Part shown: positions 19,166 through 38,547 of the stretch, piece after piece
Layout of the letters: the number at the start of each line of letters is the position of its first letter
Position numbering within the stretch: position 1 is the first letter of the stretch
Source of the DNA: an uncultured Verrucomicrobiales bacterium
GTDB taxonomy: Bacteria > Verrucomicrobiota > Verrucomicrobiia > JADLBR01 > JAIBCM01
Assembly: GCA_964435495.1 (NCBI GenBank)
Contig: CAYSZK010000003.1
Span: 2,870-66,869 of the forward strand
Direction: 5' to 3'
Length of the DNA stretch: 64,000 bases
Made by a program: the position numbers and the translations under genes
The notes under the pieces: generated by a model
Database searches by the model: none
What the model saw: the letters and a program-made list of their open reading frames with translations, nothing else
What the model was told of the DNA's origin: nothing

Positions 19166-19773
19166 GCGAGACATCCAATTTTCTGGTGCCGATGGTGGTG
19201 GAGCAGACCGGGCGCGGCGAGCGCGGGTACGACATCTACTCGCGGCTGTTGAAGGACCGGATCGTGTTCATCGGGTCGGCGATTGACGACACGGTGGCGA
19301 ACCTGGTGATCGCGCAGCTGCTGTTTTTGCAAATGGACGATCCGAAGAAGGACATCAGCCTCTATTTGCAGAGTCCCGGGGGGTATGTGACGGCCGGGCT
19401 GGCGATTTACGACACCATGCAATTTTTGACGTGCGACGTGGCGACCTACTGCATTGGGCAGGCGGCGAGCATGGGGGCGGTGCTGCTGGCGGCGGGGTCG
19501 AAAGGGAAGCGGTTTGCCCTGCCGAACGCGCGGATCATGATCCACCAGCCGTTGGGCGGGGCCCAGGGACAGGCGACGGACGTGGCGATCCAGGCCAAGG
19601 AAATCCTGAAGACCAAGCAGCGGCTCAACGAAATTCTGGCCGAGCACACCGGCCGGCCCATCACGCAACTGGAGAAGGATACCGACCGCGACTTTTTCAT
19701 GAGCGCGGAGGAGGCGAAGGAGTACGGGCTGGTGGATGAGGTGGTGAAGTCGCGGCGCGAAGTGAAGGCGTGA
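19162..19773 (+). CDS. clpP: ATP-dependent Clp protease proteolytic subunit
   Basis: The catalytic Ser context [14 protein letters not shown] and the IMIHQP motif are present. The ATGA overlaps the tig stop. Confidence 0.9.
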
Positions 19774-19849
19774 CGGCCGAAACCAGCGTGGACACGCAAG
19801 TGCCAGAAGGCGTTGGCGGGCGGGGGCGGAACAGGCGGCGCACCATGGT

Positions 19850-20806: not shown

Positions 20807-20864
20807 GGATTGCGGTCAGGATGCTACGCGAAGGACGGGGCGGCGGCAAGGCGGCAAAGTCTTG

Positions 20865-21647: not shown

Positions 21648-23053
21648 GGCGCGGGGGTGGCGCTCCGAGGCCGGGCTTCGCGGGCGGTTTCGACGAGGGC
21701 TTCGAGGCGGGTGCGCAGGGCGGCTTCGGCGGCATCGTCCAGGGACGGCACCTCGATTTCGAGCACGGGAATGGCGTGCCGGGCGGTGATGGCCTGTTGG
21801 AGGAGGATGGACTCGGCGGCGCAATGGCTGGCGCCGGGGATTCTGGAGATGACGGCGGCTTCGGCGCCGAACCGCGTGATGTCGCGGCAGATTCTGTCGC
21901 CGCGCCCGGCGCAAGGCCCGGCCATGGGATCGGCGAGGGCGGACCGGGCGAGGGCGGTGAGCGGATCGGAATCCTCGGGGATGGGGTCGAGGGCGTGGCA
22001 GAAAAGGAATTCGGAGCCGCAGAGGCGGCCGCCGCACTCTTCGAGGAGGTTCATGGCCTTGAGATCGGCGGCGGGATTGATCCAAAAGACCCGCACGGCA
22101 TCGGCGGGGAGGACGCCGGCGCGGGCGGCAACGCGGTGGCGCACTTCGGCGGCGACGGTTTCGAGGACGGCGAGGCATTCGGCCGGGTCGGAACAAAAAT
22201 GGATGGCGAGCATTTCGCAGATGAGCATTTCGAGCGCCGGAAAGGGGCAGGCCGGGGCGGTGTACACAAGCGAGCGCAATTCGTCGAGCAGGGCGCGGAC
22301 GTGGTTGGCGCCGGCGATGCCGGCTTGGAGCGTGGCGTCGGCGAGGGGCCGTCCGGTCAGGCCTTCGATGAGCTTCCGGACGCCGTCCAGCTCGGCGCGG
22401 ACGAGGCGGAGCTGGGAGGCGGGGGCGGTGAAACCGCCGGGGAGGGGAACGGCCTCTTCGTCGGGACCCGGCTGGCGGCGGTGGGGGATTTCCCACCAGT
22501 GGACGGGATGGCCGAGGCCTTCGAGGAGCTGGGAGATGGCGGTGAGATCGTCGCAGCAGGCGCCGACGCTGCAGACGACGCGGTCGGGGATGGGGAAATG
22601 GGCGCCGGTGACAAAGGCGCCGAGCAGGGCGCGCACGGGGCAGAGGCCGGGACCGGCGCCGAGGGCTTCGGCCTGGTCGAGAAGGCCGGCGCTGGATTCC
22701 AGGAGGCATGGCAGCCACCATGCGCCGTCGAGGTAAAACGCGGTGACGCCGGGGTCCGAATAGGCGATGACGGGGACCGTGCCAAGGTCCTTCATGACGC
22801 CGACGAGCTTCTTTCCTTCTTCCCGTGCTTCGCGCAGGCGGTCATTCTCGGTGAGTAGAAAATTCCAGAGGCGCAGGGCGGCGGCGGAGGTGTCGAAGAA
22901 GAGGGCGGCGAGGCGCCGGTTGGCGCCTTCGTCGAGATGGCGTTGGAGGGGGCCGCCGTACCCGGGTTCGCGCAGGCCGTCGGCGCAAAGCTGGGCGTGG
23001 CGGGCGCCCCATTCTTCCAGGCGGATGCGGCGGGGTCCGAGGGCGGCGTTCAT
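21644..23053 (-). CDS. 2-hydroxyacyl-CoA dehydratase family protein (HgdB/BcrB-like, 469 aa)
   Basis: Cys-rich segments (CSVGACCDDL, CAGRGDRICRD). Similar in length and composition to HgdAB/BcrBC subunits. I confirmed the ATG at 23053, overlapping the upstream stop. Confidence 0.65.
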   Translation of the reverse strand: MNAALGPRRIRLEEWGARHAQLCADGLREPGYGGPLQRHLDEGANRRLAALFFDTSAAALRLWNFLLTENDRLREAREEGKKLVGVMKDLGTVPVIAYSDPGVTAFYLDGAWWLPCLLESSAGLLDQAEALGAGPGLCPVRALLGAFVTGAHFPIPDRVVCSVGACCDDLTAISQLLEGLGHPVHWWEIPHRRQPGPDEEAVPLPGGFTAPASQLRLVRAELDGVRKLIEGLTGRPLADATLQAGIAGANHVRALLDELRSLVYTAPACPFPALEMLICEMLAIHFCSDPAECLAVLETVAAEVRHRVAARAGVLPADAVRVFWINPAADLKAMNLLEECGGRLCGSEFLFCHALDPIPEDSDPLTALARSALADPMAGPCAGRGDRICRDITRFGAEAAVISRIPGASHCAAESILLQQAITARHAIPVLEIEVPSLDDAAEAALRTRLEALVETAREARPRSATPAP

Positions 23054-24156
23054 GGGCGGGCGGCGGCTTGGGCGGCGAGGGTTTCGATAAAGGCTTCGAC
23101 GCGGGTGCGGGTGCGTCCGGCGGCGGCGGGCCCGGTGAGCGGCCCGGCGGCGGAGTCGAGGGGAAGGACAGGGACCGCGGCGAGCTGCTGGATGCGGCGG
23201 AGTTCGGTTTGCCAGAGATCGCACCAGAGATGGTGGCGGACGATGAGGCCGTCGAGCTCGCGTTCGCGGATGGCGGCGATGAGCCATTGATAGAGGCGGT
23301 CGTTGGGGCGTAGGGCGATGTCGGGGATGGCGTCGAAATAGGCGGCGGTGAGCGTTTCGAGGGGGTCGCCGAGGGCGGCGCCGAAGTTGAGGGGTTCGGG
23401 CAGGGTGCGTTCGCCGTGTTCGGTCCCGTCGAGCATGACGCGGGCGCCGGCGGCTTCGATCCAATCGAACAACTCCATGTCGCGGAGAAAGAGCGGCCCG
23501 CCGATCAAGCCGATCCGCGGTTCGGCGCGTGTGGCCGGGGGATGATCGTGGCGCGGGGCCTCGGGGATATCCTGGTGCAAGCGCCTCAGGAAATAGTCCA
23601 CGACGCCGGAGCTGAACCAGCCGGTGCGCCACTCGGCGAGGGTACGGGCGGAGACGGGGAGATTTCCGTCGCGGTGGAGATCCCCGAGCCGGCGCAGGGA
23701 TTTGCGGGCTTCGTCGAACCGGAAAAAGGTTTCGACTATGGCTTGTGGCGAAGGGGCGGTGCCGCCGAGGGCGGTGAGGAACCGGCCAAGGCGCTCGAGC
23801 TCGAGGGTGTAATATTCGCGGGCGGCCGGGCTTTTGCAGGCCTTGGGAACGTGGAACAGGAAGACCGGCGGCGAGTCGCCGCGGGTGGCGGCGAGCTCGG
23901 CGGCTCGGCGTTGCTGGTCGCAGGAGGTGGCCATGACGATGGCCGCGTGGGTGGCGCCCGCGGTTTCGTCGAGGAAGGCTTCGGCGTAGGGGCAGAAACC
24001 GGCCGCGCAGCCGCCGCAATCGCTGTCGGAACCGGCGGGCATCAGGCGGACAGGCCGGAACCCGTGGGCGGCGATCCATTCCGGGGGAATGAAAAAGGAG
24101 GTGACAACGACTTTCCTTCCCGGAAACCGCGCGCTCCACCGGCCCAGGGGGTTCAT
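23050..24156 (-). CDS. 2-hydroxyacyl-CoA dehydratase family protein (HgdA/BcrC-like, 368 aa)
   Basis: Cys cluster GSDSDCGGCAAGFCPY plus MATSCDQ. I confirmed the ATG at 24156. The upstream gene's stop (24158..24160) overlaps this ATG. Confidence 0.65.
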   Translation of the reverse strand: MNPLGRWSARFPGRKVVVTSFFIPPEWIAAHGFRPVRLMPAGSDSDCGGCAAGFCPYAEAFLDETAGATHAAIVMATSCDQQRRAAELAATRGDSPPVFLFHVPKACKSPAAREYYTLELERLGRFLTALGGTAPSPQAIVETFFRFDEARKSLRRLGDLHRDGNLPVSARTLAEWRTGWFSSGVVDYFLRRLHQDIPEAPRHDHPPATRAEPRIGLIGGPLFLRDMELFDWIEAAGARVMLDGTEHGERTLPEPLNFGAALGDPLETLTAAYFDAIPDIALRPNDRLYQWLIAAIRERELDGLIVRHHLWCDLWQTELRRIQQLAAVPVLPLDSAAGPLTGPAAAGRTRTRVEAFIETLAAQAAARP

Positions 24157-24157
24157 G

Positions 24158-25015
24158 TCAGGCGGGCTCCTTCGCGGGGGCGGGTGGCGGCCCCATGCGC
24201 CAGGCTGGCTGGATTTCGCAGGCGCCGCAATGGACGCATTCCATGCAGCGGATGCAGCGGGGATCGTCGGCCCGGACCTTGGAACTGACGCCGAAATCGC
24301 AGGTGTCGCCGCAGCGGCCGCAGTCGCGGCAGCGTTCGGGGAAAAAGCGCACCGAAAAGAGCGAGAAGCGGTTGAACAGGCCGAAGATGGCGCCGAGCGG
24401 GCAAAGGAGGACGCACCACGGGCGGCGGATGAAGAACATCGCGCCGAGCACCGCGCCCAGGACGGAGAGTTTGATGGCATTGGGCCAGACAACCGGCGCG
24501 CCCGCGAACGCCTGGCTGGCGGCGTGGGGGAGGGAGGCTTCAAGCGCGCCAGCCGGACAGACGCGGCAGAAGAAGAGCGGGTGTGCTTCGCCCCAGAACC
24601 AGGGGACGGCGACGACAAGACCGGCGAGCACGGCGTACCGGAGATGCGTCATCCAGTATGGCGGGTCCCATTTGGGCGTGGGAACCTTGGCGGCAAGGTC
24701 CTGGAGCAAGCCAAAGGGGCAGGCCCACCCGCACAAGGCGGTGCCGGCAAGCGCGCCAGCCAGGACAAGCGTGCCCAGCGCGAGGAACGGCATCAGATGC
24801 AGCGCGCTGAACTGGGCGAGCACGCCGATGGGACAGGCGAACGTGGCCAGCGGACACGCATAGCAATGGAACACAGGCGCGCACACCGAGTGCGTGCGCA
24901 GGCCCGCGGGACTGAGCCATGCCACGAGGAACAACGATTGCACCCAGAGCCTGTGGCGCGAGAGTTTCGAGGCGGGCGTGTTGAAGGAAAGTTGAGCCAT
25001 GGACGCCATGACCAA
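24158..25015 (-). CDS. Membrane-bound 4Fe-4S polyferredoxin (NapH/MauN-like)
   Basis: Four or more TM helices with two ferredoxin-type clusters (CxxCxxCxxxC-like: CRDCGRCGDTC and CIRCMECVHCGAC), plus the CPLATFACP and CGWACPFG motifs typical of the NapH family. Confidence 0.7.
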   Translation of the reverse strand: MVMASMAQLSFNTPASKLSRHRLWVQSLFLVAWLSPAGLRTHSVCAPVFHCYACPLATFACPIGVLAQFSALHLMPFLALGTLVLAGALAGTALCGWACPFGLLQDLAAKVPTPKWDPPYWMTHLRYAVLAGLVVAVPWFWGEAHPLFFCRVCPAGALEASLPHAASQAFAGAPVVWPNAIKLSVLGAVLGAMFFIRRPWCVLLCPLGAIFGLFNRFSLFSVRFFPERCRDCGRCGDTCDFGVSSKVRADDPRCIRCMECVHCGACEIQPAWRMGPPPAPAKEPA

Positions 25016-25028
25016 ATGGTCACTGTAT

Positions 25029-25409
25029 TCAGGTGGGACACCGGGCTTGCGGCGTCCCGGTGTAGGTCAGCCGCAGGACGCCCTCGGGCGTGCGAGCCAG
25101 GCCGGAGCGCGCCACTTCGAGAACAAGCTCGGGCTCGGCCTTGAGGGTGGACACGGTCCTGCGGACGACGATCTCGCTTGGCGCCTCTTGGCTGCCCATC
25201 AAGCCGGGCATTCCGGGCTCGCCGGGTTCGAGGCCGGGCCCGGCGCCGGGCGGAGGGGGCGGGGGCGTTTCCCGGGTTTCGCGCTCGAAGGTGACAGTCT
25301 GGTGATGGCCCATCGCGCCAAACACAAGCATGAACGCGCCGGCGGACACGAGCAGCGACGCGGCGAACGTGCGGCGGACCGGGTGGGAGGCCGGCGCGGA
25401 CGGGTTCAT
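25029..25409 (-). CDS. Hypothetical small membrane-anchored protein
   Basis: Start MNPSAP. One TM helix (FAASLLVSAGAFMLVFGAM), a poly-Pro linker and a C-terminal beta-rich domain. It lies immediately downstream of tRNA-Sec. I recognised no family. Confidence 0.35.
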   Translation of the reverse strand: MNPSAPASHPVRRTFAASLLVSAGAFMLVFGAMGHHQTVTFERETRETPPPPPPGAGPGLEPGEPGMPGLMGSQEAPSEIVVRRTVSTLKAEPELVLEVARSGLARTPEGVLRLTYTGTPQARCPT

Positions 25410-25430
25410 GGCGCGGCGCCCCGCGAAGAA

Positions 25431-25526
25431 TGGCGGAGGCGAATGGGAGTCGAACCCACCCGGGACCTTTCCAGGCCCCACACTGGTTTTGAAGACCAGG
25501 AGCGCCACCGGACGCCTGTCACCTCC
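25431..25526 (-). tRNA. selC: tRNA-Sec (selenocysteine tRNA, anticodon TCA)
   Basis: Reverse complement reads GGAGGTGACAGGCGTCCGGTGGCGCTCCTGGTCTTCAAAACCAGTGTGGGGCCTGGAAAGGTCCCGGGTGGGTTCGACTCCCATTCGCCTCCGCCA. It has an 8-bp acceptor stem, anticodon loop CTTCAAA (UCA), a long variable arm, a GGTTCGACTCC T-loop and an encoded CCA, and is 96 nt long. Confidence 0.8.
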
Positions 25527-25541
25527 AAAAATCGCATGCGG

Positions 25542-27158
25542 TCAATCTCCTGTTTGCCGTCCGTCCATTTGCGCCTGGACCGCTTTGTAAAACATCATGA
25601 CCGGCGATCCCCCAAAAGCAATCGCGCTCCACGCCGCGTCGTCGATTTCGTCCTGGCTGAATCCCATTGCGCGGGCCTTTTGGATGTGCTGGACGGCGCA
25701 GGGTTCGCACTTGGACAGAACCGACAAGGCCACGGCAATGGCCTGCTTGGCCGGTGCGTCAAGCCCCTTGGGCCTGCCCGCCGATTGCAGAAACGCCATG
25801 AACCGTTTCTCGGTGTCCTGGATGGCGCTCCCGGAAACGCCCGGCGCCCGCGCGGCGTCCGGCGGCGCGGCATCGGTTTCCGCGCAGCAGGCGGTTTCGG
25901 CGCCGGTGGCGCCGGTGGCGGGTGGGGCAGGCGGGGGGGCGGCGCGCGGCATGACACGTTCCTGGCGGGTTGTTAGAGTCACCATGCCCGTGCCCTTTCC
26001 GGTGGCACGTCCGATGACCGCGGCGGCGGGCACGCCGCGGGCGTGAAGGGCGGTGACGAGGGCGGGGGCGCGGTCGTGAGGGATGGCGATGAGGAGGCCG
26101 CCGGAGGTTTGGGGATCGAAGCAAACGTCGAGCGCGACGGGGTCAAGGCCTTCCGCGGAGCGGACCTGGCCGCCGGCGGCGGCGCGGTTGCGTTCGGTGG
26201 CGCCGGGGATGACGCCTTCGGCGGCGCGGGCCAGGGCGCCGGGGAGCAGGGGGATGTCGTCCCAGACCAACTCGGCATCGACGCCGCTGTCGCGGGCCAT
26301 TTCGGCAAGGTGCCCGAGGAGGCTGAAGCCGGTGACGTCGGTGCAACCGTTGGCGCCGTGGGCGAGCATGAGTTCGGCGGCGGTGTTGTTGAGGGCGGCC
26401 ATCGAGGCGGCGGCGGCCGCGATCTCGTCGGGACCGGCGCGGCCAATCTGTGCGGCAAAGGCGAGGATTCCCGTGCCGAGGGGTTTGGTGAGGACCAGCG
26501 CGTCGCCGGGCCGGGCGCCGGCGCGGGCGGTCACGCGGTCCGCGTCGATCTCCCCGGTGACGGCAAAGCCGGCTTTGATCTCGCTGTCCTGGATGCTGTG
26601 GCCGCCGATGACCGAGACGCCGGCCTCGGCCATCTTGTCGAGGCCGCCGCGGAGGATGTCGCGCATGACGCTGGTGGGGACGGCGCCGGCGGGGAAGCCG
26701 ATGATGGACAGGGCGGTCAAGGGGCGGCCACCCATGGCATAGACGTCGCTGACGGAGTTGGCGGCGGCGATCTGGCCGAAGGTGTAGGGATCATCGACCG
26801 AAGGACTGAAGACATCGACCGTCTGGACCAGGCACCGGGCGCCGTCGAACCGGTAAACCCCGGCGTCGTCCCCGGCGGCAACGCCGAGGAGCACGCGCGG
26901 GTCGTCGGGCGCGGGAAGGCCCTGGACGGCCTCTTTGAGGGTGGCCAGGTCGATCTTGGAGGCGCAGCCGGCCTTTTGGACAAGCCGCGTGAGGCAGACG
27001 GGACCAGGCGCGGGTTCGAGGTGTTCGCCGGCGCAATGGCAGACGTCCTTTTCCTTGAGAAGCTCGCACGGGCAGGCGAGGCGCGGGTCGCACACGCAAT
27101 GGCCCAGCGCGATGGAGCGGCGCATGACGCGCTGGCGTTTTTCGAGGTCCCTGGCCAT
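25542..27158 (-). CDS. selD: Selenide, water dikinase (selenophosphate synthetase), Cys form, with an N-terminal Cys-rich extension and a C-terminal AhpD/carboxymuconolactone-decarboxylase-like domain
   Basis: SelD core with LTRLVQKAGCASKI (E. coli: LTQYSHGAGCGCKI) and a PurM-like fold. The N-terminal roughly 50 aa carry three CxC pairs (CVC, CPC, CHC). The C-terminal roughly 110 aa carry an AhpD-like CxxC (SKCEPCAVQH). Confidence 0.8.
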   Translation of the reverse strand: MARDLEKRQRVMRRSIALGHCVCDPRLACPCELLKEKDVCHCAGEHLEPAPGPVCLTRLVQKAGCASKIDLATLKEAVQGLPAPDDPRVLLGVAAGDDAGVYRFDGARCLVQTVDVFSPSVDDPYTFGQIAAANSVSDVYAMGGRPLTALSIIGFPAGAVPTSVMRDILRGGLDKMAEAGVSVIGGHSIQDSEIKAGFAVTGEIDADRVTARAGARPGDALVLTKPLGTGILAFAAQIGRAGPDEIAAAAASMAALNNTAAELMLAHGANGCTDVTGFSLLGHLAEMARDSGVDAELVWDDIPLLPGALARAAEGVIPGATERNRAAAGGQVRSAEGLDPVALDVCFDPQTSGGLLIAIPHDRAPALVTALHARGVPAAAVIGRATGKGTGMVTLTTRQERVMPRAAPPPAPPATGATGAETACCAETDAAPPDAARAPGVSGSAIQDTEKRFMAFLQSAGRPKGLDAPAKQAIAVALSVLSKCEPCAVQHIQKARAMGFSQDEIDDAAWSAIAFGGSPVMMFYKAVQAQMDGRQTGD

Positions 27159-27164
27159 GGCGGG

Positions 27165-28337
27165 TCAGGCGGGGGCGCCGGCTTCCGTGCGGATGGTTTC
27201 AAAAAGGGCTTCGAGCCGGACGGCGATCCGCCCGGTGTCCGAGGGGGAGTAATCCGTTTCGATGCGGAGGTACGGCAGGGCCAGCCTGTCCCCGGCAAGC
27301 CGTTTGACGAGATCGGACTCGATATCGTAGGTGAGGCAGGCCTGCCAGACCAGGTCGATGACGCAGGCCGCGCGGTACTCGCGCGCCAGGCGGGCGATGG
27401 ATTCGAGCCGGGCGTTGTTGGGCGACATCACCGAGCACGGAATGGCCAGGTATTTGTCCGCCAGCGCCTCAATGGGATCGGGATTGGCCTCGTCCACGTC
27501 GTCGAGGATCGGTTTGAGGCCGGTGCAATTTTCCTGGCAGACGATGAGCCCGCCGCGGTCCTCGATGAGGTCCACCACGCGCTCCGCCCCGTGCACCACG
27601 GGCACGCCGGTAAGCAGCACGCGAACGCGTCCAGCCAGGTCCGGGCGCGATGGCGCGGCTTCCCGCTCCCGGAGGATGGCCTCGTAGCGGGCGAGGTCCT
27701 CGGGAATGCCGGAGATGATGGACTTGAGATCAAGCAATTCGCGCCCCGTGAGCGGGGGCGGATCGAGGCGCATGAGGCCGGCCAGGCGGCGGCGCAGGCG
27801 GCGCTCGCGGTTCATGAGCCGGATGGCGTCCCGGATGCGGGCGGTGGTGATTTTGACGCGGAACCGGTCCTCGAGCACCTGGATGAGGCGGTTCATTTCG
27901 GACGTCCACTGGGCGCGGGCGCCGGGATCGCCGGGACGGTGGGGGAGAGCGAGGATGTGCATGGGCCGGGACTCGGCCATGATCTCGAACATCTTTTTCT
28001 TGCCGTCGCAGGTTGTTTCGGCGACGACGAGCGCGGCTGACTCAAGGAATGGGTTGGATTTTCCGACGTGGTAGCCGAAGGTGGACTTGATCAGGGGGCA
28101 GAGATTGGAGGGCAACCGGGTTTCCGCGTCGGGGATGGTTTCCGGTTCGCCGCCGCAGAGGCAGACTGGAACGGCATTGGCGGCCATGATGATTTCGCGC
28201 GGGGTGAATTCGCACATGATGCCGACGATGGGGCGGCCTTGTTGGGCGGCCTGTCCGGCATGGGCGCGGCAATGGCCGAACATGCCGTCGAACCACGCCA
28301 GGGACGCGGGGCGTGGGGAAGCGGTCAGCGCGGGCAT
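27165..28337 (-). CDS. 2-hydroxyacyl-CoA dehydratase family protein, second HgdB-like paralog (390 aa)
   Basis: VGIMCEFTPREIIMAANAVPVCLCGGEP and ETTCDGKKKMFE match the HgdB/BcrB-type Fe-S subunit family. It sits 6 bp upstream of selD. Confidence 0.6.
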   Translation of the reverse strand: MPALTASPRPASLAWFDGMFGHCRAHAGQAAQQGRPIVGIMCEFTPREIIMAANAVPVCLCGGEPETIPDAETRLPSNLCPLIKSTFGYHVGKSNPFLESAALVVAETTCDGKKKMFEIMAESRPMHILALPHRPGDPGARAQWTSEMNRLIQVLEDRFRVKITTARIRDAIRLMNRERRLRRRLAGLMRLDPPPLTGRELLDLKSIISGIPEDLARYEAILREREAAPSRPDLAGRVRVLLTGVPVVHGAERVVDLIEDRGGLIVCQENCTGLKPILDDVDEANPDPIEALADKYLAIPCSVMSPNNARLESIARLAREYRAACVIDLVWQACLTYDIESDLVKRLAGDRLALPYLRIETDYSPSDTGRIAVRLEALFETIRTEAGAPA

Positions 28338-28385
28338 GGCAGGGCTCTCCGAAGCGTGCGGGCTTGGCGGCGCGCGGGGCTGCGT

Positions 28386-30260
28386 TCAGGGTTTCTTGAA
28401 CCAATCCTCGCTCTGCTTGTATTCAAACGCGCCGAGCTTGGCGTCCACTTCCACGCGGAATTCGCCGTCGAGACTGGAAGGCACACGCCACGTGTACCGG
28501 CAGGTGCCGCCTCATCCATACTCAAATTTGCCGGACTCGATCTTCTTGCCGTCCCGGTTGAGGATGGTGAAGATTGGGGCGGACTGGCGCTCGTTGTTGC
28601 GGCGGGCCCCGGCTTCGTAGGTCTGGCCTTCCTTGTCTTCGAGGGTGAATTCAATATAGGCCGTATTGTTGCCGCGCCAATCGACATCGACTTTCGCCCT
28701 GAGGCCAGATCCCACGCCTGTGGCCACGGCGGCGCCGGGGCGGATTTCGATTTTGCGGGAGTTGCCGGAGGACGCGCCGTTGAGGGTCCAGTCGGCGCCG
28801 CCTGCCTGGTGGCGCAGGCGGTAATACCCGATCTGGTAGGTGCCCGGCGCGAGGTCCCAGCCGTCTTTGGCGCCGGCGTCCAGGTAACCGCAGCAACCGC
28901 GGCTGAGGACGGCGAGTTCCAGGTGGGGGGACTCTGGTTTCAGTTTGCCGGCGTCCATGCGGACCTCCTGAAGGAGCAGCGTGGAAGCGTCCGGCTCGGA
29001 GTTGACCTGGAAAAATTTTCCGGCGAGGGCGAGCAATGGGGTTAGCGGCAAGATTTCGCCCCGGTAATCGAAGCGTTCGTTGCCGTCGAGGTCGAGGGCG
29101 AGGAGATCGTAGCCGGGACGCTCGTCTCCGTCGGACGATCGCTGGTTGTAGGGCAGCAGGTCGAGCGTGAACCCGGCCTCGATGCGCCCGTTGTTGCTGG
29201 CGTCAGTCACCGCGGCGAGCAGTTTGCGGGGGCCGGCGGCGGTTTTCCCTTCCCAGTGGCAGGCCGGCGCGACTTCGAGGTAACCGGGGGTGGAGGAGTT
29301 TTGCGTGTACACCCGGCCTTTGAACTCGATCTCCAGAGGGACTTTGCCTTCCGCCGCTGACGACTGGATTTCAGCGTCGCCGAATTTGTAGTAGCCGTAG
29401 CGCTCGGCCGATTCGCCGGTGTACTCATTGGAGGCGCTCAGGACCTTGGCCTTGGCCAGGTCGCCGCTGCCATCCACATCGACCAGCAACCGGGCCCTGC
29501 CCAAGTTGTCGGCGTCCATGAGCATGAACACGTCCCGCCCGCCGATCTTGGCCGAGAAGTAGAGCGGCTTTTTCACGTCCGGCGCGTTTTTGATGCCTTC
29601 GGGCGGGGCGTAAAGCAGGCGGGCGTTGCGTTCCGAGGCGTAGGCGAGATATTGCTGCAACTCGGCGGTTCCGCGCTTTTTCAAGGGCGTCTTCTCCCCA
29701 AAACCGACCTGATCCATGGACCGGGAGGCGGGGGCCGATGCCGCGGCGGGCGCGGGGGATTGGGATGTTTCGGGCTTGGCCGGGGACGGGGCGGCGGGCT
29801 GTTCGGTCGCGCGCTGGGCTTGGAGTTCCCTCTGCCACTCGTCGTACCGGCGCCAGAAATCGGTCCTGGCGGCGTCGATCTCGATGGCGGTGGACCCGGT
29901 GGCGGCGAGGATGAGCTTTCCTTTCTCGATGCCGACCAACTCGAACTCCTTGCCGGGGGCAAGCTTCATCGAGCCGACGGTCTTGCCGTTGATATGGAGC
30001 GGCACCTCCGAAGGCGCGAGGACGGAGACGGCCTTGGGCCATTGCTCCGGGTCTTTGGCGATCTCGGCGAGCTTGGCGGCGTCGGCGGCCGGACCGGATT
30101 GCGCGGGGGCGGCGGCGGCCCAGGCCCAGGCCAGCGCGGCGGCCAGGATAAGAAAGGGATCGAGCGCGCTGGCTGGATTCCGACCCGCAAACACCCGAGG
30201 CAATGGCCTGATCCCCTGCATAGCGGCGCCATGGTGGCGGATTCCTGGCGCGCTGGTCAA
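28386..30260 (-). CDS. Candidate selenoprotein: secreted protein of unknown function with an in-frame TGA (Sec?) 42 codons before the final TGA
   Basis: The annotated ORF ends ...KFEYG then TGA at 28512..28514. The same frame continues GGTCRYTWRVPSSLDGEFRVEVDAKLGAFEYKQSEDWFKKP to a stop at 28386..28388. The extension has GC3-rich codons and a protein-like composition. Its FEY motif echoes KFEYG just before the TGA. A signal peptide starts at the alternative start 30221 (MQGIRP...AAALAWAWAAAAPAQS). Confidence 0.5.
28470..28511 (-). promoter_or_regulatory. Candidate bacterial SECIS-like hairpin immediately 3' of the in-frame UGA
   Basis: The mRNA reads UGA GGC GGC ACC UGC CGG UAC ACG UGG CGU GUG CC. 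The outer stem is GGCAC/GUGCC and the inner is GCC/GGC, around a CACGUG palindrome. Only manual folding was done. Confidence 0.3.
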
Positions 30261-30399
30261 GGCAAATTATTTGTTTTCTCCAAAACGTACGGAGCGGGGC
30301 GCCCGCGCCGCCGGCACGCCTTTCGGAGAAGCCGGCCCCGGCCAACCGTCCCAAGCGCCGCCGCCCGCGTGAAATGGAAAATGGAATCTTGATTCGGGG

Positions 30400-31893
30400 G
30401 TGGGACGGGGGCAGGATGGGGGCATGGACGGCATGCCGGACCCGGCGCTGTTGCGCGCGATTCCGCCGGTGGAGGCGTTGGTGGCGGCGAATGCGGGCCG
30501 GGAGGAATTTGCGGGTTTGTCGCGGGAGCGGTTGACGGGTCTGGTGCGGGAAACGGTGGAAGGCGTGCGGCGGGAGGCGCGGACGGGGTCGCTCGCGCCG
30601 GGGGGGGAAGGCGGGGAGGGATGGGCGGCGTGGGTGCGGCGGGAGATCGCGGCGCGGCTGCTGGGGCGTGCGCGGGAATCGGCGCGGGCGCATTACCGTC
30701 GGGCGATCAACGCGACGGGCGTGATTTTGCACACGGGCCTTGGCCGGGCGGTGCTGGCGGAGGAGGCGCTCGCGCAGGTGGGCGCGGAATTGCGCGGGTA
30801 TTCGGTGCTGCAACAGAGCGTGGAGACGGGGGAACGGACGCGGCGGGACCTGGGAGTGGAACGGTTGTTATGCCTGTTGACGGGCGCGGAGGCGGCGACG
30901 GTGGTGAACAACAACGCGGCGGCCACGATGCTGGCGCTGGCGGCGATGGCGGCGGGGCGCGAGGTGCTTGTGTCGCGGGGCCAGTTGATCGAGATCGGCG
31001 GGTCGTTCCGGCTGCCGGACGTCATGGCGGCGAGCGGCGCGAAGCTGGTGGAGGTGGGCACCACGAACAAGACCCACCCGCGCGATTACGCCAACGCGCT
31101 CACGGAGCGGACGGCGGCCATCATGCGGGTGCATCCGAGCAATTACCGCATCCACGGTTTTGTCAGGGAGGTGGGCACGGCGGAGCTTGTCGCCATCGCG
31201 AAGCCGCGCGGAATCCCCGTCATCGACGACCTGGGCGCGGGCGCGTTGCTTGACCTTTCGCGGTTTGGGTTCGAGAAGGAGCCGACGATCCAGGAATCGG
31301 TGCGGGCGGGGGCGGACGTGGTGTTGTCGAGCGCGGACAAGCTCATTGGCGGGCCGCAGGGCGGGATCATCCTGGGGCGGGCGGCGGTGGTCGCGGCCAT
31401 CCGGAAGCATCCGCTGGCGCGGATCGTGCGCGTGGACAAGGTGACGCTGGCGGCGCTGGAGGCGACCCTGCGCCTGTTTCTTGACGAAGGCCTGGCGTTG
31501 CGGCGGGTTCCGACGCTGCGGATGCTGTGCCGCACGGTGGAGGAGATCGGCGCGGAGGCCGCGGCGATGGCGGACTGGTTGCGGGCGGAGGGGGGCGGCG
31601 CGTTGCCGGCGGAGGTGGCGTTGGAGGACGGGGCGTCGTTCATGGGGGGCGGGTCGCTGCCGGAGCAGGAGCTTCCGACGCGGCTGGTCGCGGTCCGTCC
31701 GCGGGCGATGGGGGCCGCGGAGCTGGCGGCGCGGCTGCGGCGGGGCGTGCCGGCGGTGTTTTGCCGCGTCCGGCATGAGGGGGCGTTGTTCGACCCGCGA
31801 ACGATGCTGGCCGGGGAGGCGGCGGAGGCGGCGCGGGCGGTGGCGCGTTGCCTGGTGGAGGCGCCTGGCGCGGAGAGCGCGGCGGCGGCTTGA
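30400..31893 (+). CDS. selA: L-seryl-tRNA(Sec) selenium transferase
   Basis: PLP-dependent SelA core (NATGVILHTGLGRA...SADKLIGGPQGGII) and the typical N-terminal tRNA-binding region. The true start may be 30424 or 30433. Confidence 0.85.
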   Translation: MGRGQDGGMDGMPDPALLRAIPPVEALVAANAGREEFAGLSRERLTGLVRETVEGVRREARTGSLAPGGEGGEGWAAWVRREIAARLLGRARESARAHYRRAINATGVILHTGLGRAVLAEEALAQVGAELRGYSVLQQSVETGERTRRDLGVERLLCLLTGAEAATVVNNNAAATMLALAAMAAGREVLVSRGQLIEIGGSFRLPDVMAASGAKLVEVGTTNKTHPRDYANALTERTAAIMRVHPSNYRIHGFVREVGTAELVAIAKPRGIPVIDDLGAGALLDLSRFGFEKEPTIQESVRAGADVVLSSADKLIGGPQGGIILGRAAVVAAIRKHPLARIVRVDKVTLAALEATLRLFLDEGLALRRVPTLRMLCRTVEEIGAEAAAMADWLRAEGGGALPAEVALEDGASFMGGGSLPEQELPTRLVAVRPRAMGAAELAARLRRGVPAVFCRVRHEGALFDPRTMLAGEAAEAARAVARCLVEAPGAESAAAA

Positions 31894-31898
31894 CCCGG

Positions 31899-33842
31899 AT
31901 GGCGACCCGGCGGATTCACATCACCCTGGGCACGGCCGGGCATATTGACCACGGCAAGACGGCGCTGGTCCGGAATCTGACCGGGTGCGAGACCGACACG
32001 CTCAAGGAGGAGAAAGAGCGGGGGATGTCGATTGACCTGGGGTTCGCGCCGTGCCGGATCGAAGGCCTGGAAGCCGGGCTGGTGGACGTGCCGGGGCACG
32101 AGAATTTCGTGCGGACGATGGTGGCGGGCGCGACCGGGATGGACGGGGTGATTCTTGTCGTCGCGGCCGACGATGGCGTGATGCCGCAGACCCGCGAGCA
32201 TCTGGACATCCTGTGCCTGCTGGGGGTGCGGCACGGCGTGGTGGCGCTGACGAAGATCGACCGCGTCGAGGCGGGGCGGGTGGAAGAGGTGGCCGCGGAA
32301 GTCCGCGGGCGGCTGCGTGGCACGTTCCTGGAGCCGGCGGAAATCTGTCCGGTGTCGAACACGACGTTTGAAGGCTTGAATGATCTCCGGGCGGCGCTGG
32401 TCCGGTTGATGGAGCGCGTGCCGCCGCGCGGGACGGGAGGTGTGTTCCGGCTGCCGGTGGACCGGGCGTTTGCGGTGAAGGGGTATGGCGCGGTGGTGAC
32501 GGGGATACCGGCGCACGGCCGGGTGGCGGTGGGCGCGGAGCTGGAGATGCATCACCAAGGCGGGGAAAAGCCGGTGGCCGGGCGGTTGCGGGCGGTGCAG
32601 GTGTACCGGGAGGCGGGAGAGACGGCGCAGGCGGGCGAGTGCGCGGCCCTCAATGTGCCGCAATGGGACCACGCGCGGACGCGGCGCGGGGATGTCGTGG
32701 CGGCGCCGGGCTGTTTTGTCGCGGGCGAGTGGCTGGTGTGCCGCCTTGCGTTGCTCGGGCGGGAAGGGTTGGACCTCAGGAACGGCGGGCAGGTTCGCGT
32801 GCACACGGGGACCGTTGACGTGCCGGGGACGGTGTACCTGGAGCAAGGGCGCCGGATGAATGCGGGAGACGAGGGACTCGTGCAAGTGCGGGTGGCCGCG
32901 CCGATTGTGGCGGGGCCGGGCGATCCCTTCCTTCTTCGCGTCCTGGGTCCGGCGCGCACCATCGGAGGCGGGCGGATCGTGGCGATGCCGGCGCGGAGGT
33001 TGCGGCGGCAGCGTCCGGAGGCGTGGGCCGCGGCGCGGGCGCGGGCCGAGGCGCTTGGGGACCCAATACGGCTGGTGGAGAGTTGCTTGCGCGCGGCCGT
33101 GGGCGGCATCGCCCGCGAACCGGGCCTGGAGTTTGAGGCCAAACTGCGGGCGGACGAAGTGCGGGCGGCGCTTGGGGCGTTGGAAGCCGGGGGCGTGGCG
33201 GTGGCGGTTCCGGGGCAGGGGTATATCCATGGGGAGACCGCGGCGCGTGCGCGGGCGGCGGTGTTGGCGGCGGTGGGGGCGTTTCACCGGGAGCATCCGG
33301 AGAGTCCGGGCCTGGCGCGGGAAAGCGGGTGGGTGCCCACGCTGGGGGAAGGGCCACCTCTGGCGCCGGCGTTGGCGGAGTGGGCGGTGGCGGCACTGTT
33401 GGGGGATGGGGCGTTGGTGAGGGACGGGGCGACGGGGCGGATTGCGTTGCCGGAGCACACGGCGCGGGTGACCGATGCGGACAGGCTGGGGATGGAGGCG
33501 GTGGAGCGGGCGTTTCGGGAACATCGATTTGCTCCGCCGGACGAAACCGGGTTGGCGGCGGCGGGCGGGGTCGGGGTGGAGGAGGCGCGGCGGCTGACGC
33601 GGCTGCTGGAGGAGCGGGGGCGGCTGGTGCGGGTGGGGGCGGGGCTGCTGTTTCACGCGGAGGCGGTGGCCGAGGCGCGCGCGCGGATTGAGGAACACAT
33701 GCGGCGGGAAGGGCGGCTGGAGAGCGTGAAATTCAAGTACCTGGTGGAAACGACGCGCAAGTTCGCGCTGCCGCTTCTGGATTATTTCGACCGCATTGGA
33801 GTCACGCGCCGGGTGGGGAACACGCGGTTTCCGCGGCGGTGA
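31899..33842 (+). CDS. selB: Selenocysteine-specific translation elongation factor
   Basis: G-domain (GHIDHGKTALV, DVPGHENF, TKID), EF-Tu-like domains II and III, and a long winged-helix C-terminal extension that would bind SECIS. The start lies 5 bp after the selA stop. Confidence 0.85.
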   Translation: MATRRIHITLGTAGHIDHGKTALVRNLTGCETDTLKEEKERGMSIDLGFAPCRIEGLEAGLVDVPGHENFVRTMVAGATGMDGVILVVAADDGVMPQTREHLDILCLLGVRHGVVALTKIDRVEAGRVEEVAAEVRGRLRGTFLEPAEICPVSNTTFEGLNDLRAALVRLMERVPPRGTGGVFRLPVDRAFAVKGYGAVVTGIPAHGRVAVGAELEMHHQGGEKPVAGRLRAVQVYREAGETAQAGECAALNVPQWDHARTRRGDVVAAPGCFVAGEWLVCRLALLGREGLDLRNGGQVRVHTGTVDVPGTVYLEQGRRMNAGDEGLVQVRVAAPIVAGPGDPFLLRVLGPARTIGGGRIVAMPARRLRRQRPEAWAAARARAEALGDPIRLVESCLRAAVGGIAREPGLEFEAKLRADEVRAALGALEAGGVAVAVPGQGYIHGETAARARAAVLAAVGAFHREHPESPGLARESGWVPTLGEGPPLAPALAEWAVAALLGDGALVRDGATGRIALPEHTARVTDADRLGMEAVERAFREHRFAPPDETGLAAAGGVGVEEARRLTRLLEERGRLVRVGAGLLFHAEAVAEARARIEEHMRREGRLESVKFKYLVETTRKFALPLLDYFDRIGVTRRVGNTRFPRR

Positions 33843-35418
33843 TTTCATTCCAGAGCGCGGGGCCTTCGACGGCGGTCGGGGTGACGATCCGGAGGCGATC
33901 GGGGGCCGGGGCGGGCTGGAGGAGCGAGACGGCGGCGAGGGAGAGAGCGGCAACGAGGACGCCGGCGCCAATGTAAAAGTAGCCGTAGCCGCCGGCCAGC
34001 CAGGCGGGCAGGACGGCGGTGTAATAATGGGGGGCGCCGGGATCGGCGGCCTGAAGGAAGCGGTATTCCCAAAGATAAACCGCGAGGGTCGTCACGGCGC
34101 CGAGGACGCTGGCGGTGAAGGCGCCGCTCGCGGTGGCGCGGCGCCAGAAGATGGCGATGGCGGGGACGGCGATGGAGGCGGAAAGCACGCCGGAGGAAAG
34201 ATAATAGACGTCGCCGAGGCGGTCGGCGATGGCGGCGTAACCCACGGCAAGCAGCAGGCAGGCGGCGGTGATGATCTTGGCGGGTAGCACCGTGGACTTG
34301 GCGGAACCGCCGAACAAGGGGCGGTAGAGATCGTAGGCGAGGGGCATGGCGGTGACGTTGGTGAACGTGTCCACGGTGGACATCTGGCAGGCGATGACAC
34401 CGAGGAACATGAAGACCGCCAGCCCAGGCGGCATCTGGGCGAGGAACGCGGCGATGATTCCCGTGAAATCGGCGCCCACGGCCGCGGCGCCGGGGCCGCT
34501 AGGTTTGAAAACGACGAGCGCGCAGAAGGCGACCACCGCCGGGATGGCGATGACGAACACCGTGATCAGGACCAAGCCGATGAGGGCGCCGATGCGCGCC
34601 TGGGGCGTGGTGGGCGCGGCTTGGATGCGCAGAACGAGATCTTGTTCGACCAGCCAGCCGGGGAGGTACCCGATGAGCAGGACGGCGGGAAAAATCCAGT
34701 CGAGCGTGTTGAGGTTGAGGGCGGCGGGGGCGCCGGCGTTGGGCGGCGCGATTTCGCGCAAGGCGGCGAGGACGCCCATGGGCGCGGCGGCGTGGGCCTG
34801 GACCAGCGCCCAACCGCCGAGGACCGCCATGAACGGCGCCATGACGGCGAATTGCAGAAAGTCGGTGGCGACGATGGAGCGGAAACCGCCCAGCACCATA
34901 TAGACGAGGACCGGGAGGATGAACGCGAGGAGCATCAGATTGGGGTGGGCCGCCAGCCCGAGGCTGGGGGCGGCGAGGGTCTTGACCATGACCAACTCGG
35001 CGCCGGTCCAGGAAAGGAACACGCCGAAGGAAAGAAAGGCGGCGAGACGCCGGAGGTTCGGGCCGAACCGGCGGCCGAGGGCTTCGGGCAGGCTCAGCGC
35101 GGCGGCGCGGCGGAAGAACGGGACCAGCAGGACGATGAGCCAGCAGAGGATGAACCAGGGGATGGGCAAGAGCCAGAGGCCGGTGGCGCCGTACCCGTAA
35201 ATCTGGCTCATGCCAAACCCGATCCATCCGAGCATAAGCCAGCCGGAGGCCAGGGAGACCCCCAGGCGCCAGCCGGGGATGGAACGGCCGGCGGCCCAGA
35301 ACTCGAAATCGGGATGCGCCCGGGCTTGGAGCAACCGGCGGCGGCCCCAGAAGCCGACGCCCATGACGGCAAGCGCGTACATCCCGTAAACAACCCAACA
35401 CCCCGCGACGGTATTCAT
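33802..35418 (-). CDS. Sodium:solute symporter (SSS) family transporter
   Basis: About 13 TM helices with SSS-family topology. I confirmed the ATG at 35418. The 3' end converges with selB and overlaps it. Confidence 0.8.
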   Translation of the reverse strand: MNTVAGCWVVYGMYALAVMGVGFWGRRRLLQARAHPDFEFWAAGRSIPGWRLGVSLASGWLMLGWIGFGMSQIYGYGATGLWLLPIPWFILCWLIVLLVPFFRRAAALSLPEALGRRFGPNLRRLAAFLSFGVFLSWTGAELVMVKTLAAPSLGLAAHPNLMLLAFILPVLVYMVLGGFRSIVATDFLQFAVMAPFMAVLGGWALVQAHAAAPMGVLAALREIAPPNAGAPAALNLNTLDWIFPAVLLIGYLPGWLVEQDLVLRIQAAPTTPQARIGALIGLVLITVFVIAIPAVVAFCALVVFKPSGPGAAAVGADFTGIIAAFLAQMPPGLAVFMFLGVIACQMSTVDTFTNVTAMPLAYDLYRPLFGGSAKSTVLPAKIITAACLLLAVGYAAIADRLGDVYYLSSGVLSASIAVPAIAIFWRRATASGAFTASVLGAVTTLAVYLWEYRFLQAADPGAPHYYTAVLPAWLAGGYGYFYIGAGVLVAALSLAAVSLLQPAPAPDRLRIVTPTAVEGPALWNEITAAETACSPPGA

Positions 35419-35514
35419 CGTTCGGATGAATCTGTCGGAAGGGCGGGGCCATGGCGAGTGGAAATGATGCGGCGCGGCCGCTTTGGGATTGCGCACGCGG
35501 CGGGTGGGCGCACG

Positions 35515-36648
35515 ATGGGGCGCGTGTTGTACCGTGAACTTGGCGGGACGGGATTGAAAGTGTCGCAGTTGGGCTTTGGCGCGATGCGATTGCCCATGAC
35601 CCCGCGGGACGAATCCGGGAAGGCGCGGGTGGACCGGGAAATGGCGGTTCCGTTGATGCATCGGGCGTTCGAGGCCGGGGTGAACTACATCGACACGGCG
35701 GTGGGTTATTGCGACGGGGACTCCCAGAGCGCGGTGGGCGAGGCGCTGCGCGGCTGGCGGAGGCGGATCGTGGTTTCGACGAAGAACCATTACTATGGGG
35801 AAGACGAGGGGGAATGGTGGCGGAACCTGGAGAACTCGCTGGAACGGCTGGGGGTGGATTGCATCGACATCTACAACCATCACGGCGTGAACTGGGACAC
35901 GTTCACCCGGCATGTCGAGCCGCGCGTGGGCAAGTGGATGCGCAAGGCCGTGGACCAGAAGCTCGTGCGGCACGCCTGCTGTTCGTTCCATGACAACAAC
36001 GCGAATCTCCGCCGGTTGATCGACACCGGGTACGCGGATGTCATCACACTCCAGTACAATCTGCTCGACCGGCAATTGGAGGACGGGATCGCCCACGCGC
36101 ACGCGAAGGGCGTGGGGGTGGTGGTGATGGGGCCGGTGGCGGGCGGGCGGCTCGGCGCGGGCAGCGACGTCCTGGCCGACCTGGTCCCCGGCGTCAGGCG
36201 CGTGCCCGAGCTGGCGCTCCGGTTTGTGCTGAGCAACCCCGGAGTCGCCGTCGCGCTGTCGGGCATGAGCGCCGTGGAACAGGTGGCGGAAAACGCGGCG
36301 GTGTGCGCGGACCGGGTGGCGCTTTCCGAGGGGGACCGCGCGGCGATTGCGGAACACCTGGCGCGGCTTCAAAAAATGGCGGACCTGTATTGTACCGGCT
36401 GCAAGTATTGCATGCCCTGCGAGGCGGACGTGAACATCTCCGCAATCTTCGAGTTTTTCAACCGGGCAAAGGTGTACGGGCTGTGGGAATCGGCGCGCGC
36501 GTCGTATGCAAGCCTGGGGACCGTCCCGTGGCTGAAGGGGAACCGCGCGGACGCCTGCGTGGAGTGCGGAAGTTGCGAGGACAAGTGCCCGCAGCGGATT
36601 CCGATCCGGGACCAGCTCAAGCAGGCGCACAAGGCGTTGGCCGGGTAG
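35515..36648 (+). CDS. Aldo/keto reductase with a C-terminal 4Fe-4S ferredoxin-like domain
   Basis: AKR N-terminus (ELGGTGLKVSQLGFGAMRL...NYIDTA). The C-terminus carries CTGCKYCMPCE and CVECGSCEDKCP cluster motifs. I confirmed the ATG at 35515. Confidence 0.8.
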   Translation: MGRVLYRELGGTGLKVSQLGFGAMRLPMTPRDESGKARVDREMAVPLMHRAFEAGVNYIDTAVGYCDGDSQSAVGEALRGWRRRIVVSTKNHYYGEDEGEWWRNLENSLERLGVDCIDIYNHHGVNWDTFTRHVEPRVGKWMRKAVDQKLVRHACCSFHDNNANLRRLIDTGYADVITLQYNLLDRQLEDGIAHAHAKGVGVVVMGPVAGGRLGAGSDVLADLVPGVRRVPELALRFVLSNPGVAVALSGMSAVEQVAENAAVCADRVALSEGDRAAIAEHLARLQKMADLYCTGCKYCMPCEADVNISAIFEFFNRAKVYGLWESARASYASLGTVPWLKGNRADACVECGSCEDKCPQRIPIRDQLKQAHKALAG

Positions 36649-36681
36649 GGGGAAACGGGACCCAGTCCTTCGGCTGTCCGG

Positions 36682-38445: not shown

Positions 38446-38547
38446 GGCCGGAGCATGGCGGACGGGCGGCGGAGGGCGAGCCCCGTGTTCTGAATGCTGA
38501 TACAGAGACGGAACGGCGGGAGGGCGGGAGCTGCGGTTCCTGGCGTT

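Follow-up and report, generated by a model that had tools for sequence, protein, structure and literature searches.

Prokaryotic selenoproteins are sorted into 119 (sub)families in Table 1 of a May 2026 review (PMC13188914), and BSepDB rests on the same known-family list (111 families). Here we analyse a minus-strand gene at 28389..30221 of a 64,000-nt stretch of DNA (hereafter, the window; contig CAYSZK010000003.1, positions 2,870 to 66,869) from an uncultured Verrucomicrobiales bacterium. A preliminary description of this DNA, made from its letters alone, had proposed that the gene is translated through an in-frame UGA as selenocysteine (Sec) and that it represents a new selenoprotein family. 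The comparisons presented below make it very probable that the gene truly encodes a selenoprotein and that its family is uncatalogued. Nothing in the mode of recoding departs from the canonical mechanism, and the novelty lies in the family itself. Its unusual traits are that it is large, taxonomically coherent, exported, near-obligately Sec-containing, of a non-thioredoxin fold, and tied to SelD and double-cubane genes.

The canonical fdhF and fdhA genes share several features with the new gene, including an in-frame UGA and an intragenic hairpin just downstream of it, with a G in the first two loop positions and a spacing (21 nt here) within 16–37 nt. The adjacency of selA, selB, selD, and selC is also shared, as is often the case for fdhA. 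On the other hand, the new family is unrelated in fold, lacks a Mo/W cofactor domain, and is exported, and its hairpin has the consensus GUACUCG-UGG-CGAGUAC, which is peculiar to the family and at the same time encodes Y-S-W-R-V.

The selenocysteine-assisted organometallic (SAO) system includes the selenoproteins SaoB, SaoX, SaoC, and others (Haft & Gwadz, bioRxiv 10.1101/2022.07.06.499078; J Bacteriol 2023). Double-cubane proteins of the family NF040772 are almost never found without SelD, and they cluster with the SAO selenoproteins (Haft & Gwadz, 10.1101/2022.07.06.499078). SAO selenoproteins are restricted to anaerobes and are genomically linked to NF040772 double-cubane reductases and an activase, and the strong co-occurrence of double-cubane proteins with SelD is common to both systems. 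However, the double-cubane protein NF040772 and the activase are the only shared parts. The Sec motif is G-U-G-G-T-C in the new family and CU in SAO, the fold of the new family is tandem Ig-like, and its carriers are metagenome-assembled genomes (MAGs) of the Planctomycetes–Verrucomicrobia–Chlamydiae (PVC) group, whereas SAO is found in Firmicutes, Spirochaetes, and Desulfobacterota. The neighbouring proteins (double-cubane, SelD-CMD, small membrane, NapH-like, HgdB-type, activase, methyltransferase, and CarboxypepD_reg proteins) have been scanned against NCBIfam together with the selenoprotein; no Sao model (NF0407xx) hit any of them, and neither an ABC transporter (SaoB/SaoX/SaoP type) nor a MerB-like lyase (SaoL type) was found among the neighbours.

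DUF1573 proteins are β-sandwich proteins. The DUF1573 selenoprotein (PF07610, UGC motif) and the UGSC-containing protein (NF041046) are poorly characterised and resemble the new family in having Sec next to Gly and a Cys nearby, but the motif spacing and the surrounding sequence differ, and there is no match to any member at E <= 1. Both are in the 2026 catalogue (PMC13188914). The periplasmic metal-binding β-sandwich proteins CopC and P19 and the CopC-CopD fusions have structural scores no better than those of dozens of unrelated Ig-like domains; they use His/Met ligands and have no Sec or Cys site, and the new family has no Pfam hit to CopC or CopD. SoxY is a periplasmic Ig-like sulfur carrier with a Gly-flanked carrier Cys (GGCGG) at its extreme C-terminus. 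The likeness to SoxY is conceptual only, namely a reactive chalcogen residue on an exposed Gly-rich peptide of a periplasmic β-sandwich that may act as a covalent carrier. Here, Sec lies on an internal β-hairpin with three strands after it, and the two share no sequence similarity. SoxY is not among the best 50–60 structural matches listed, and no soxZ-like neighbour was seen.

Neither Pfam-A (2025) nor NCBIfam 20.0 (June 2026) has a model for the window protein or for the four or five other architectures of the family that were scanned, even at E <= 1, and the only sub-threshold matches are to the MG2 and Big_7 Ig-like domains. The review table of 119 (sub)families contains no motif equal to G-U-G-G-T-C and no matching model (PMC13188914). 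The motif strings and the family description were not found in the searchable literature, in which Haft & Tolstoy 2025 was covered only via the review table and the NCBIfam models, none of which matches. The proposal of a new selenoprotein family is supported by this lack of a Pfam or NCBIfam match and by its not being recognisable in the 2026 catalogues.

The probable selenoprotein gene and its truncated homologues

The features of the gene are as follows.

28389..30221, minus strand: selenoprotein coding sequence with full read-through, 611 codons from ATG 30221, with Sec as codon 570
30102..30221 (extent approximate), minus strand: putative signal peptide MQGIRPLPRVFAGRNPASALDPFLILAAALAWAWAAAAPAQS, read from the sequence itself
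28512..28514, minus strand: in-frame UGA, the proposed Sec codon U570, in the motif F-E-Y-G-U-G-G-T-C
28500..28502, minus strand: Cys574, the partner Cys four residues past Sec (U-G-G-T-C)
28389..28511, minus strand: post-Sec tail of 41 codons, the predicted last three β-strands of the C-terminal Ig-like domain
28480..28498, minus strand: hairpin of the selenocysteine insertion sequence (SECIS) type, GGUACACG-UGG-CGUGUGCC, with its loop at 28488..28490, overlapping the codons for R-Y-T-W-R-V-P
28386..28388, minus strand: true stop TGA, with the ATG of the next gene 48 nt beyond

As first described, the open reading frame (ORF) ends ...GKFEYG at the TGA at 28514..28512, and the frame then stays open to a second TGA. 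The sequence between both TGAs is GGTCRYTWRVPSSLDGEFRVEVDAKLGAFEYKQSEDWFKKP (41 sense codons, same frame). Alternative starts are TTG 30260, which gives a product of ~624 aa, and TTG 30203, at which the database entry P0001 (563 aa), the truncated window ORF, begins. The identical gene is also present in the runs SRR10095373/4. The gap to the downstream gene is 174 nt without the tail and 48 nt with it. The tail had also been described as using GC3-rich codons, and the GC content by codon position follows the same pattern in the tail (0.585/0.463/0.78) and in the ORF (0.65/0.49/0.82). The significance of the tail rests on this codon structure, the hairpin, and above all the homologues, not on the length of the open frame.

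Homologues have been collected in a phmmer/HMMER scan of 1.84 billion cluster representatives (E <= 1e-3) with the truncated ORF as the query. This gave 419 representative matches, and nearly all alignments reach the last residue of both query and target. The alignments cover residues ~180–569 and continue into the tail. In ~140 of the 150 best homologues (of 419), F-x-[YF]-G is the C-terminal end and is aligned to the final residue of the query. The shared end at the first TGA is only apparent: the DNA of five independent truncated homologues (26–39 % identity) shows a TGA, then a strongly conserved in-frame tail beginning GGTC-x-YSWRVP..., and a second stop ~41 codons on. A word-indexed protein search with the full query returned only the protein itself, and a profile of the C-terminal domain added three more truncated fragments; neither query yielded a Cys form. 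In each case that was looked at, amounting to well over a hundred genomes, gene callers end the protein at the UGA, and the NCBI annotation also gives the truncated form.

The degenerate DNA pattern GGN-TGN-GGN-GGN-ACN-TGY-NNN-TAY-NNN-TGG has been run against 185,579 species genomes, one per species. The TGN admits Sec, Cys, and Trp codons, while the GGTC motif and its Cys codon (TGY) are required, and the totals (at least 120 loci and at least 122 matches) are lower bounds. Among the at least 122 matches listed, 119 have TGA, two have TGT, and one has TGG. The two TGT and the TGG matches are ORFs of 9–39 codons in unrelated taxa and were rejected as chance. TGA is found at the homologous codon in all 119 genuine members listed, though TGY and TGG were permitted, and every TGA in the matches listed precedes G-G-T-C-x-Y-S/T-W-R-V-P and a conserved tail. 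A Cys-only pattern searched against 241 million metagenome records gave four matches, all of them chance, and no genuine GGTC Cys form. Sec is therefore effectively invariant inside the GGTC-motif family.

The column of Cys574, the Cys noticed near the putative Sec, is at least 90 % conserved in alignment A2, which holds homologues found independently of the pattern. More than 119 genomes from several phyla preserve the amino-acid sequence of the tail, while its synonymous sites vary. Pairwise comparisons of nonsynonymous (pN) and synonymous (pS) differences in the tail give pN < pS, in favour of purifying selection; this is a qualitative result, since the sequences, with pS of about 0.5–0.7, are too diverged for dN/dS.

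The family is mainly found in Planctomycetota and Verrucomicrobiota. The Planctomycetota carriers belong to Pirellulales, Planctomycetaceae, Thermoguttaceae, Phycisphaerae, Sedimentisphaerales, and Anaerohalosphaeraceae, and the Verrucomicrobiota carriers include Kiritimatiellia, Limisphaerales, and Terrimicrobiaceae. Further carriers are Sumerlaeota (BRC1), Hydrogenedentota, Riflebacteria, Zixibacteria, and a few Anaerolineales and Acidobacteriota bins. Among the loci listed, the nearest relatives of the window are the Verrucomicrobiia L003 and L026. Some single genomes hold two or three paralogues, some in tandem, of differing tail classes and each with its own UGA and hairpin (L051 and L063 on one contig, CAYQXM010000001.1; L067; L036, L053, and L075 in one MAG).

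The hairpin, the fold, and relatives without Sec

A SECIS-like hairpin immediately downstream of the UGA had been predicted, and its distance (canonical), folding, and covariation bear this out. In the window, the hairpin begins 13 nt and its loop 21 nt past the UGA. Counted from the U of UGA, nt 18–24 pair with nt 28–34 around the loop U25-G26-G27, and the window adds the 17–35 pair (8 bp). The minimum free energy (MFE) is -11.7 kcal/mol, a value that none of 200 shuffles attained. The model of the bacterial SECIS (bSECIS) has a 3–9 nt loop, a 4–16 bp stem, G in the first two loop positions, a distance of 16–37 nt from the UGA, and an MFE <= -7.5 kcal/mol (PMC13188914, Fig. 2). The window hairpin satisfies every one of these constraints (UGG loop of 3 nt, 8-bp stem, spacing of 21 nt, and the MFE given above). 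Across the family, the stem is 7–8 bp, and six of the pairs are 97–99 % paired. No T-run follows the hairpin, and an Rfam scan of the window matched the tRNA-Sec only and no bacterial SECIS family.

Since the hairpin overlaps the conserved Y-S/T-W-R-V-P codons, selection at the RNA level has been tested at synonymous sites, with codon usage in the same genes as the background. Within the hairpin, Arg is encoded by CGA in 88 % of cases (background 13 %), Val by GTA in 75 % (8 %), and Tyr by TAC in 98 % (56 %), and the third base of the variable codon 6 is G in 93 % (34 %). As an internal control, the Gly, Thr, and Cys codons just 5' of the stem retain their usual preference for a C ending. Compensatory changes are found in four of the eight pairs, and some of them alter the amino acid; the observed values were reached by 0 of 500 shuffles. 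For example, U-A is replaced with A-U in the window itself (ACG...CGU), and at 18–34 a change of G-C to A-U or C-G turns the Pro codon into Ser or Ala.

The 119 genes listed fall into three tail classes: 49 have ~41 aa (the window type), 24 have ~49–70 aa with the motif MPFG-U-GGTCGYSWRVP...ETFT...YDT..LYGK, and 38 have ~280–320 aa, while contig ends truncate the other eight. Of the 38 long tails, nearly all enter a hydrophobic domain with about 6–8 predicted membrane helices. Sec thus lies mid-protein in these membrane-fused genes, which cannot be reconciled with a real stop. At the other end, a hydrophobic segment is found at the N-terminus of 51 of the 58 complete family ORFs, and the window protein is probably exported via its N-terminal signal peptide.

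The structure has been predicted with AlphaFold2 for a Cys form of the protein, P0114, from an alignment of 117 sequences (pLDDT 90.4, pTM 0.86). The model shows a lone N-terminal helix (residues 2–17), read as the signal peptide, and after it an all-β array of tandem sandwich domains. The Sec-equivalent Cys438 is on the turn between strands 428–433 and 442–447, the partner Cys442 opens the next strand, and three strands come after. By this confident model, Sec would occupy the tip of a β-hairpin, rich in Gly, that belongs to the last Ig-like domain. As three strands follow the Sec site in the model, a stop at the UGA would leave the last domain incomplete. Fold searches returned generic Ig-like matches only, and a PDB sequence search with the domain profile found nothing significant.

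A few homologues are 43–45 residues longer than the others and contain the tail without recoding (P0114, P0118, P0010, P0106, and P0116). The check for homologues with a Cys aligned to the Sec and a tail beyond it, recommended in the preliminary description, thus identified P0114 (...FEYS-C-GGVC-RYS...) and P0118 (...G-C-GYSC-WYTW...), while the loop of P0010, P0106, and P0116 is Cys-free. The Cys forms are rare, and none keeps the exact GGTC motif. P0114 (L134 8001..9440) and P0118 (L136 8001..9320) keep the 5' arm of the hairpin (GGUACUCG / GGUACACG-UGG) without the 3' arm. They cannot form the hairpin, and therefore the hairpin travels with the UGA. The retained 5' arm suggests that the Cys forms descend from Sec-encoding ancestors. 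Both genes are outside sel islands and not near sel genes.

Two further observations concern these relatives. P0118 is a few genes from an ArsR/ArsP/thioredoxin-MerB/DsbD_2 cluster (metalloid-handling genes). P0010 (815 aa) is a fusion in which an N-terminal region resembling Ser/Thr protein kinases and a membrane helix are joined to the extracytoplasmic domains of the family; its loop reads ..FEHGPGTPPGYAGSHSWQVP.., and it looks like a sensor version of the fold.

The gene neighbourhood

The neighbours of the selenoprotein gene in the window are as follows.

30400..31893, plus strand: selA, divergent from the selenoprotein gene
31848..33842, plus strand: selB, divergent from the selenoprotein gene
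27165..28337, minus strand: double-cubane-cluster (8Fe-9S) anaerobic reductase, NF040772 (408 bits, cut-off 350) and PF06050, directly downstream
25542..27158, minus strand: SelD (Cys form, GCASK) fused to a C-terminal AhpD/CMD domain with CxxC (CEPC)
25431..25526, minus strand: tRNA-Sec, anticodon UCA (ARAGORN; Rfam RF01852, 74 bits)
25029..25409, minus strand: small membrane protein ...LRLTYxGxPxxRCPT, conserved in L003 (5443..5802), no Pfam hit
24158..25000, minus strand: NapH/MauN-like membrane polyferredoxin (Fer4_5)
23050..24156 and 21644..23053, minus strand: HgdB/BcrC-type (HGD-D) subunits
20865..21647, minus strand: ATP-dependent activase of HgdB/BcrC-type subunits

The sel-gene context that had been read from the sequence, with tRNA-Sec and selD downstream and selA and selB divergently upstream, is confirmed by ARAGORN, Rfam, and the family models, and all four genes are located within 5 kb of the selenoprotein gene. 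The order in the window is selB-selA, then divergently the selenoprotein, the double-cubane protein, SelD-AhpD/CMD, tRNA-Sec, the small membrane protein, the NapH-like protein, two HgdB-type subunits, and the activase. This order repeats in L003 (39 % protein identity) and L026. The divergent selA-selB arrangement has been found in L008 (26 % identity), L013, L026, L123, and L128, among others. The fusion of SelD with AhpD/CMD is conserved in L003, L026, L089, L102, and L129. AhpD-like proteins are a known selenoprotein family with a CxxU motif.

Across the family, neighbours have been counted at 117 genuine genome loci in arbitrary 8-kb blocks, which makes the counts lower bounds. The clustering of neighbours is noisy due to antisense ORFs in GC-rich DNA, and only clusters confirmed by Pfam or NCBIfam have been used. 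At least 29 of the 117 loci contain selA, selB, or selD, at least 21 the double-cubane protein, and at least 19 a NapH-like protein, while tRNA-Sec is present in at least 12 of the 28 related loci in which it was sought. Downstream of short-tail members there is typically a class-I S-adenosylmethionine (SAM) methyltransferase (19 loci), whose weak best matches are the DVU_1556 family and the ArsM type, and after it come the double-cubane protein, the HgdB pair, and the activase. The NapH-like protein of the 19 loci is mainly near the membrane-fused members, which are also accompanied by a CarboxypepD_reg-repeat protein (14 loci). The sel linkage seen in the window is conserved across phyla. 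The ~49-aa-tail class has almost no conserved neighbours. The double-cubane and HgdB-type genes of the window fit the published near-obligate co-occurrence of double-cubane proteins with SelD and extend it to PVC bacteria.

The small protein between tRNA-Sec and the NapH-like gene is ~120–130 aa long, with one hydrophobic segment, a Pro-rich stretch, and the C-terminus ...GLAR..G.LRLTY.G.P..RCPT. Its gene call in the Logan assembly overlaps tRNA-Sec, and the called start is probably too early. Also, the selenoprotein, double-cubane, and selD genes (25542..30221, minus strand) share one reading frame, with only TGA codons and short spacers between them; this common frame is probably coincidental, although it gives the region the appearance of a single very long frame interrupted by TGA.

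Readings of the UGA and possible function

The comparison strongly supports insertion of Sec at codon 570 by a SelB- and SECIS-dependent mechanism. Translation would pass the UGA at 28514..28512, with the hairpin GGUACACG-UGG-CGUGUGCC acting as a bacterial SECIS. The hairpin would recruit SelB carrying Sec-tRNA(Sec), both encoded next door, and Sec would be inserted and 41 more residues made. The predicted product is an exported protein of ~611 aa with tandem Ig-like β-sandwich domains, in which Sec is in F-E-Y-G-U-G-G-T-C and an invariant Cys follows four residues later. As had been proposed, it may be the Sec client of this genome, of which the window covers 64 kb.

Several points weigh against this reading. 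The 41-codon open extension is not above chance; base composition predicts it in 33 % of cases in this 66 % GC window, and 52 of the 86 frames of at least 300 codons in the window stay open that far past their stop. The open tail alone is thus unremarkable, and comparative support is therefore needed. The conserved Y-S-W-R-V-P peptide partly confounds the conservation of the hairpin, although the synonymous skew and the compensations that change amino acids argue that constraint on the peptide would not be the whole story. The pattern scan demands the GGTC motif, so divergent Cys forms, of which at least two exist, cannot be counted by it. All genuine carriers among the matches listed are uncultured MAGs or metagenomes. 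As regards function, the proposals below are drawn from the neighbourhood only, and the clustering with sel genes could reflect a mere client relationship, as for fdhA in Proteobacteria.

If the UGA were an ordinary stop, the product would have 569 aa, and the 123 nt beyond would be a spacer, the relic of a lost C-terminus, or a regulatory hairpin. The chance level of the open extension and the truncated form given by gene callers and NCBI agree with this, and a GC-rich hairpin past a stop could be a terminator or an attenuator. However, it would have to account for a hairpin without a T-run, for a tail that is conserved as protein in several phyla while its synonymous sites vary, for conserved tail lengths of ~41, ~49, and ~300 aa with a multi-pass membrane domain in 38 genes, for non-Sec homologues that translate straight through the region, and for the loss of three strands of a β-sandwich. 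We consider it extremely improbable. Equally little weight can be given to read-through of the UGA without Sec, whether by near-cognate insertion of Trp or Cys or under an alternative genetic code in these lineages, even though UGA is the leakiest stop and some uncultured bacterial lineages reassign it. TGA ends the selenoprotein gene itself at 28386, the next gene, and most long frames in the window, which marks the code as standard. The site-specific hairpin fits the SelB-type SECIS model, the adjacency of selA, selB, selD, and tRNA-Sec is far above chance, and the residue aligned in homologues without recoding is Cys, the usual counterpart of Sec.

A different question is whether the protein, as a genuine selenoprotein, is a mere client of the sel island, i.e., a periplasmic selenol/thiol oxidoreductase acting on protein or small-molecule disulfides or peroxides, unrelated to the double-cubane, NapH, and methyltransferase genes or to selenium metabolism. 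Most bacterial selenoproteins are redox proteins with U/C pairs (PMC13188914), the clustering of fdhA with sel genes in Proteobacteria reflects nothing but a client relationship, and the ~49-aa-tail subfamily (MPFG-U-GGTCGY) has almost no conserved neighbours. On the other hand, the double-cubane, HgdB-type, activase, and methyltransferase genes follow the short-tail members on the same strand at ~20 loci in different orders, and NapH-like genes accompany membrane-fused members at 19. It is known from independent work that double-cubane proteins hardly ever occur apart from SelD. Also, the fold is Ig-like and not thioredoxin-like, and the spacing is UxxxC and not UxxC. The client-only explanation is doubtful on balance, but it deserves serious consideration.

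We tentatively favour a role for the U...C pair as an extracytoplasmic selenol/thiol site, which may capture or reduce a chalcogen or metalloid, covalently or by chelation, as the outward module of an anaerobic reductive pathway; the neighbourhood points to this, at less than even confidence. The site might pass through a selenenylsulfide state in its cycle, or it might bind a chalcogen or a metalloid as a ligand. Its partners would be the NapH-like membrane ferredoxin, the ATP-activated double-cubane and HgdB-type reductases, the SAM methyltransferase at many loci, and SelD-AhpD.

A more specific version, which we regard as rather improbable, is a dedicated pathway for the capture and reduction of selenium (or another chalcogen or metalloid) with the family as its outward-facing component. 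At the cell surface, the element would become covalently bound to the exported Sec/Cys hairpin. Transfer of electrons or substrate through the membrane would be the task of the NapH-like ferredoxin or of the fused membrane domain, and reduction of the element that of the ATP-activated double-cubane and HgdB-type reductases. The product would pass to SelD via the fused AhpD domain. Such a pathway, if true, would give the double-cubane proteins a physiological role, explain their near-obligate co-occurrence with SelD, and identify a route by which selenium is delivered in vivo for the synthesis of selenophosphate. In that case, Cys substitutes would be almost entirely lacking because the chemistry depends on a Se-Se or Se-X bond.

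The selenoprotein assignment has consequences of its own. In Planctomycetota, Verrucomicrobiota, and allied phyla, the annotated products of hundreds of genes wrongly end at '...FEYG', and one profile with a SECIS rule would mend this annotation and add a family to catalogues that now stand at 111–119. The family is a sel-island-linked selenoprotein of a large anaerobic PVC group and may maintain the Sec trait there, a role usually ascribed to FdhA. Cys almost never replaces Sec in it, which is unusual among selenoproteins. Its physical tie to SelD, the double-cubane protein, and the NapH-like ferredoxin offers a testable handle on why double-cubane proteins track selenium metabolism.

Two observations concern the window as a whole. 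A second hidden selenoprotein gene was considered and rejected, as only one further TGA-joined pair is coding-like in composition, and it lies opposite a longer ORF on the other strand. The overall composition is 37.9 % G and 28.1 % C; the GC skew of the plus strand is ~0 in the first 8 kb and is unusually strong and sustained over 16001..64000 (+0.15 to +0.26 in 8-kb bins), whatever the orientation of the genes.

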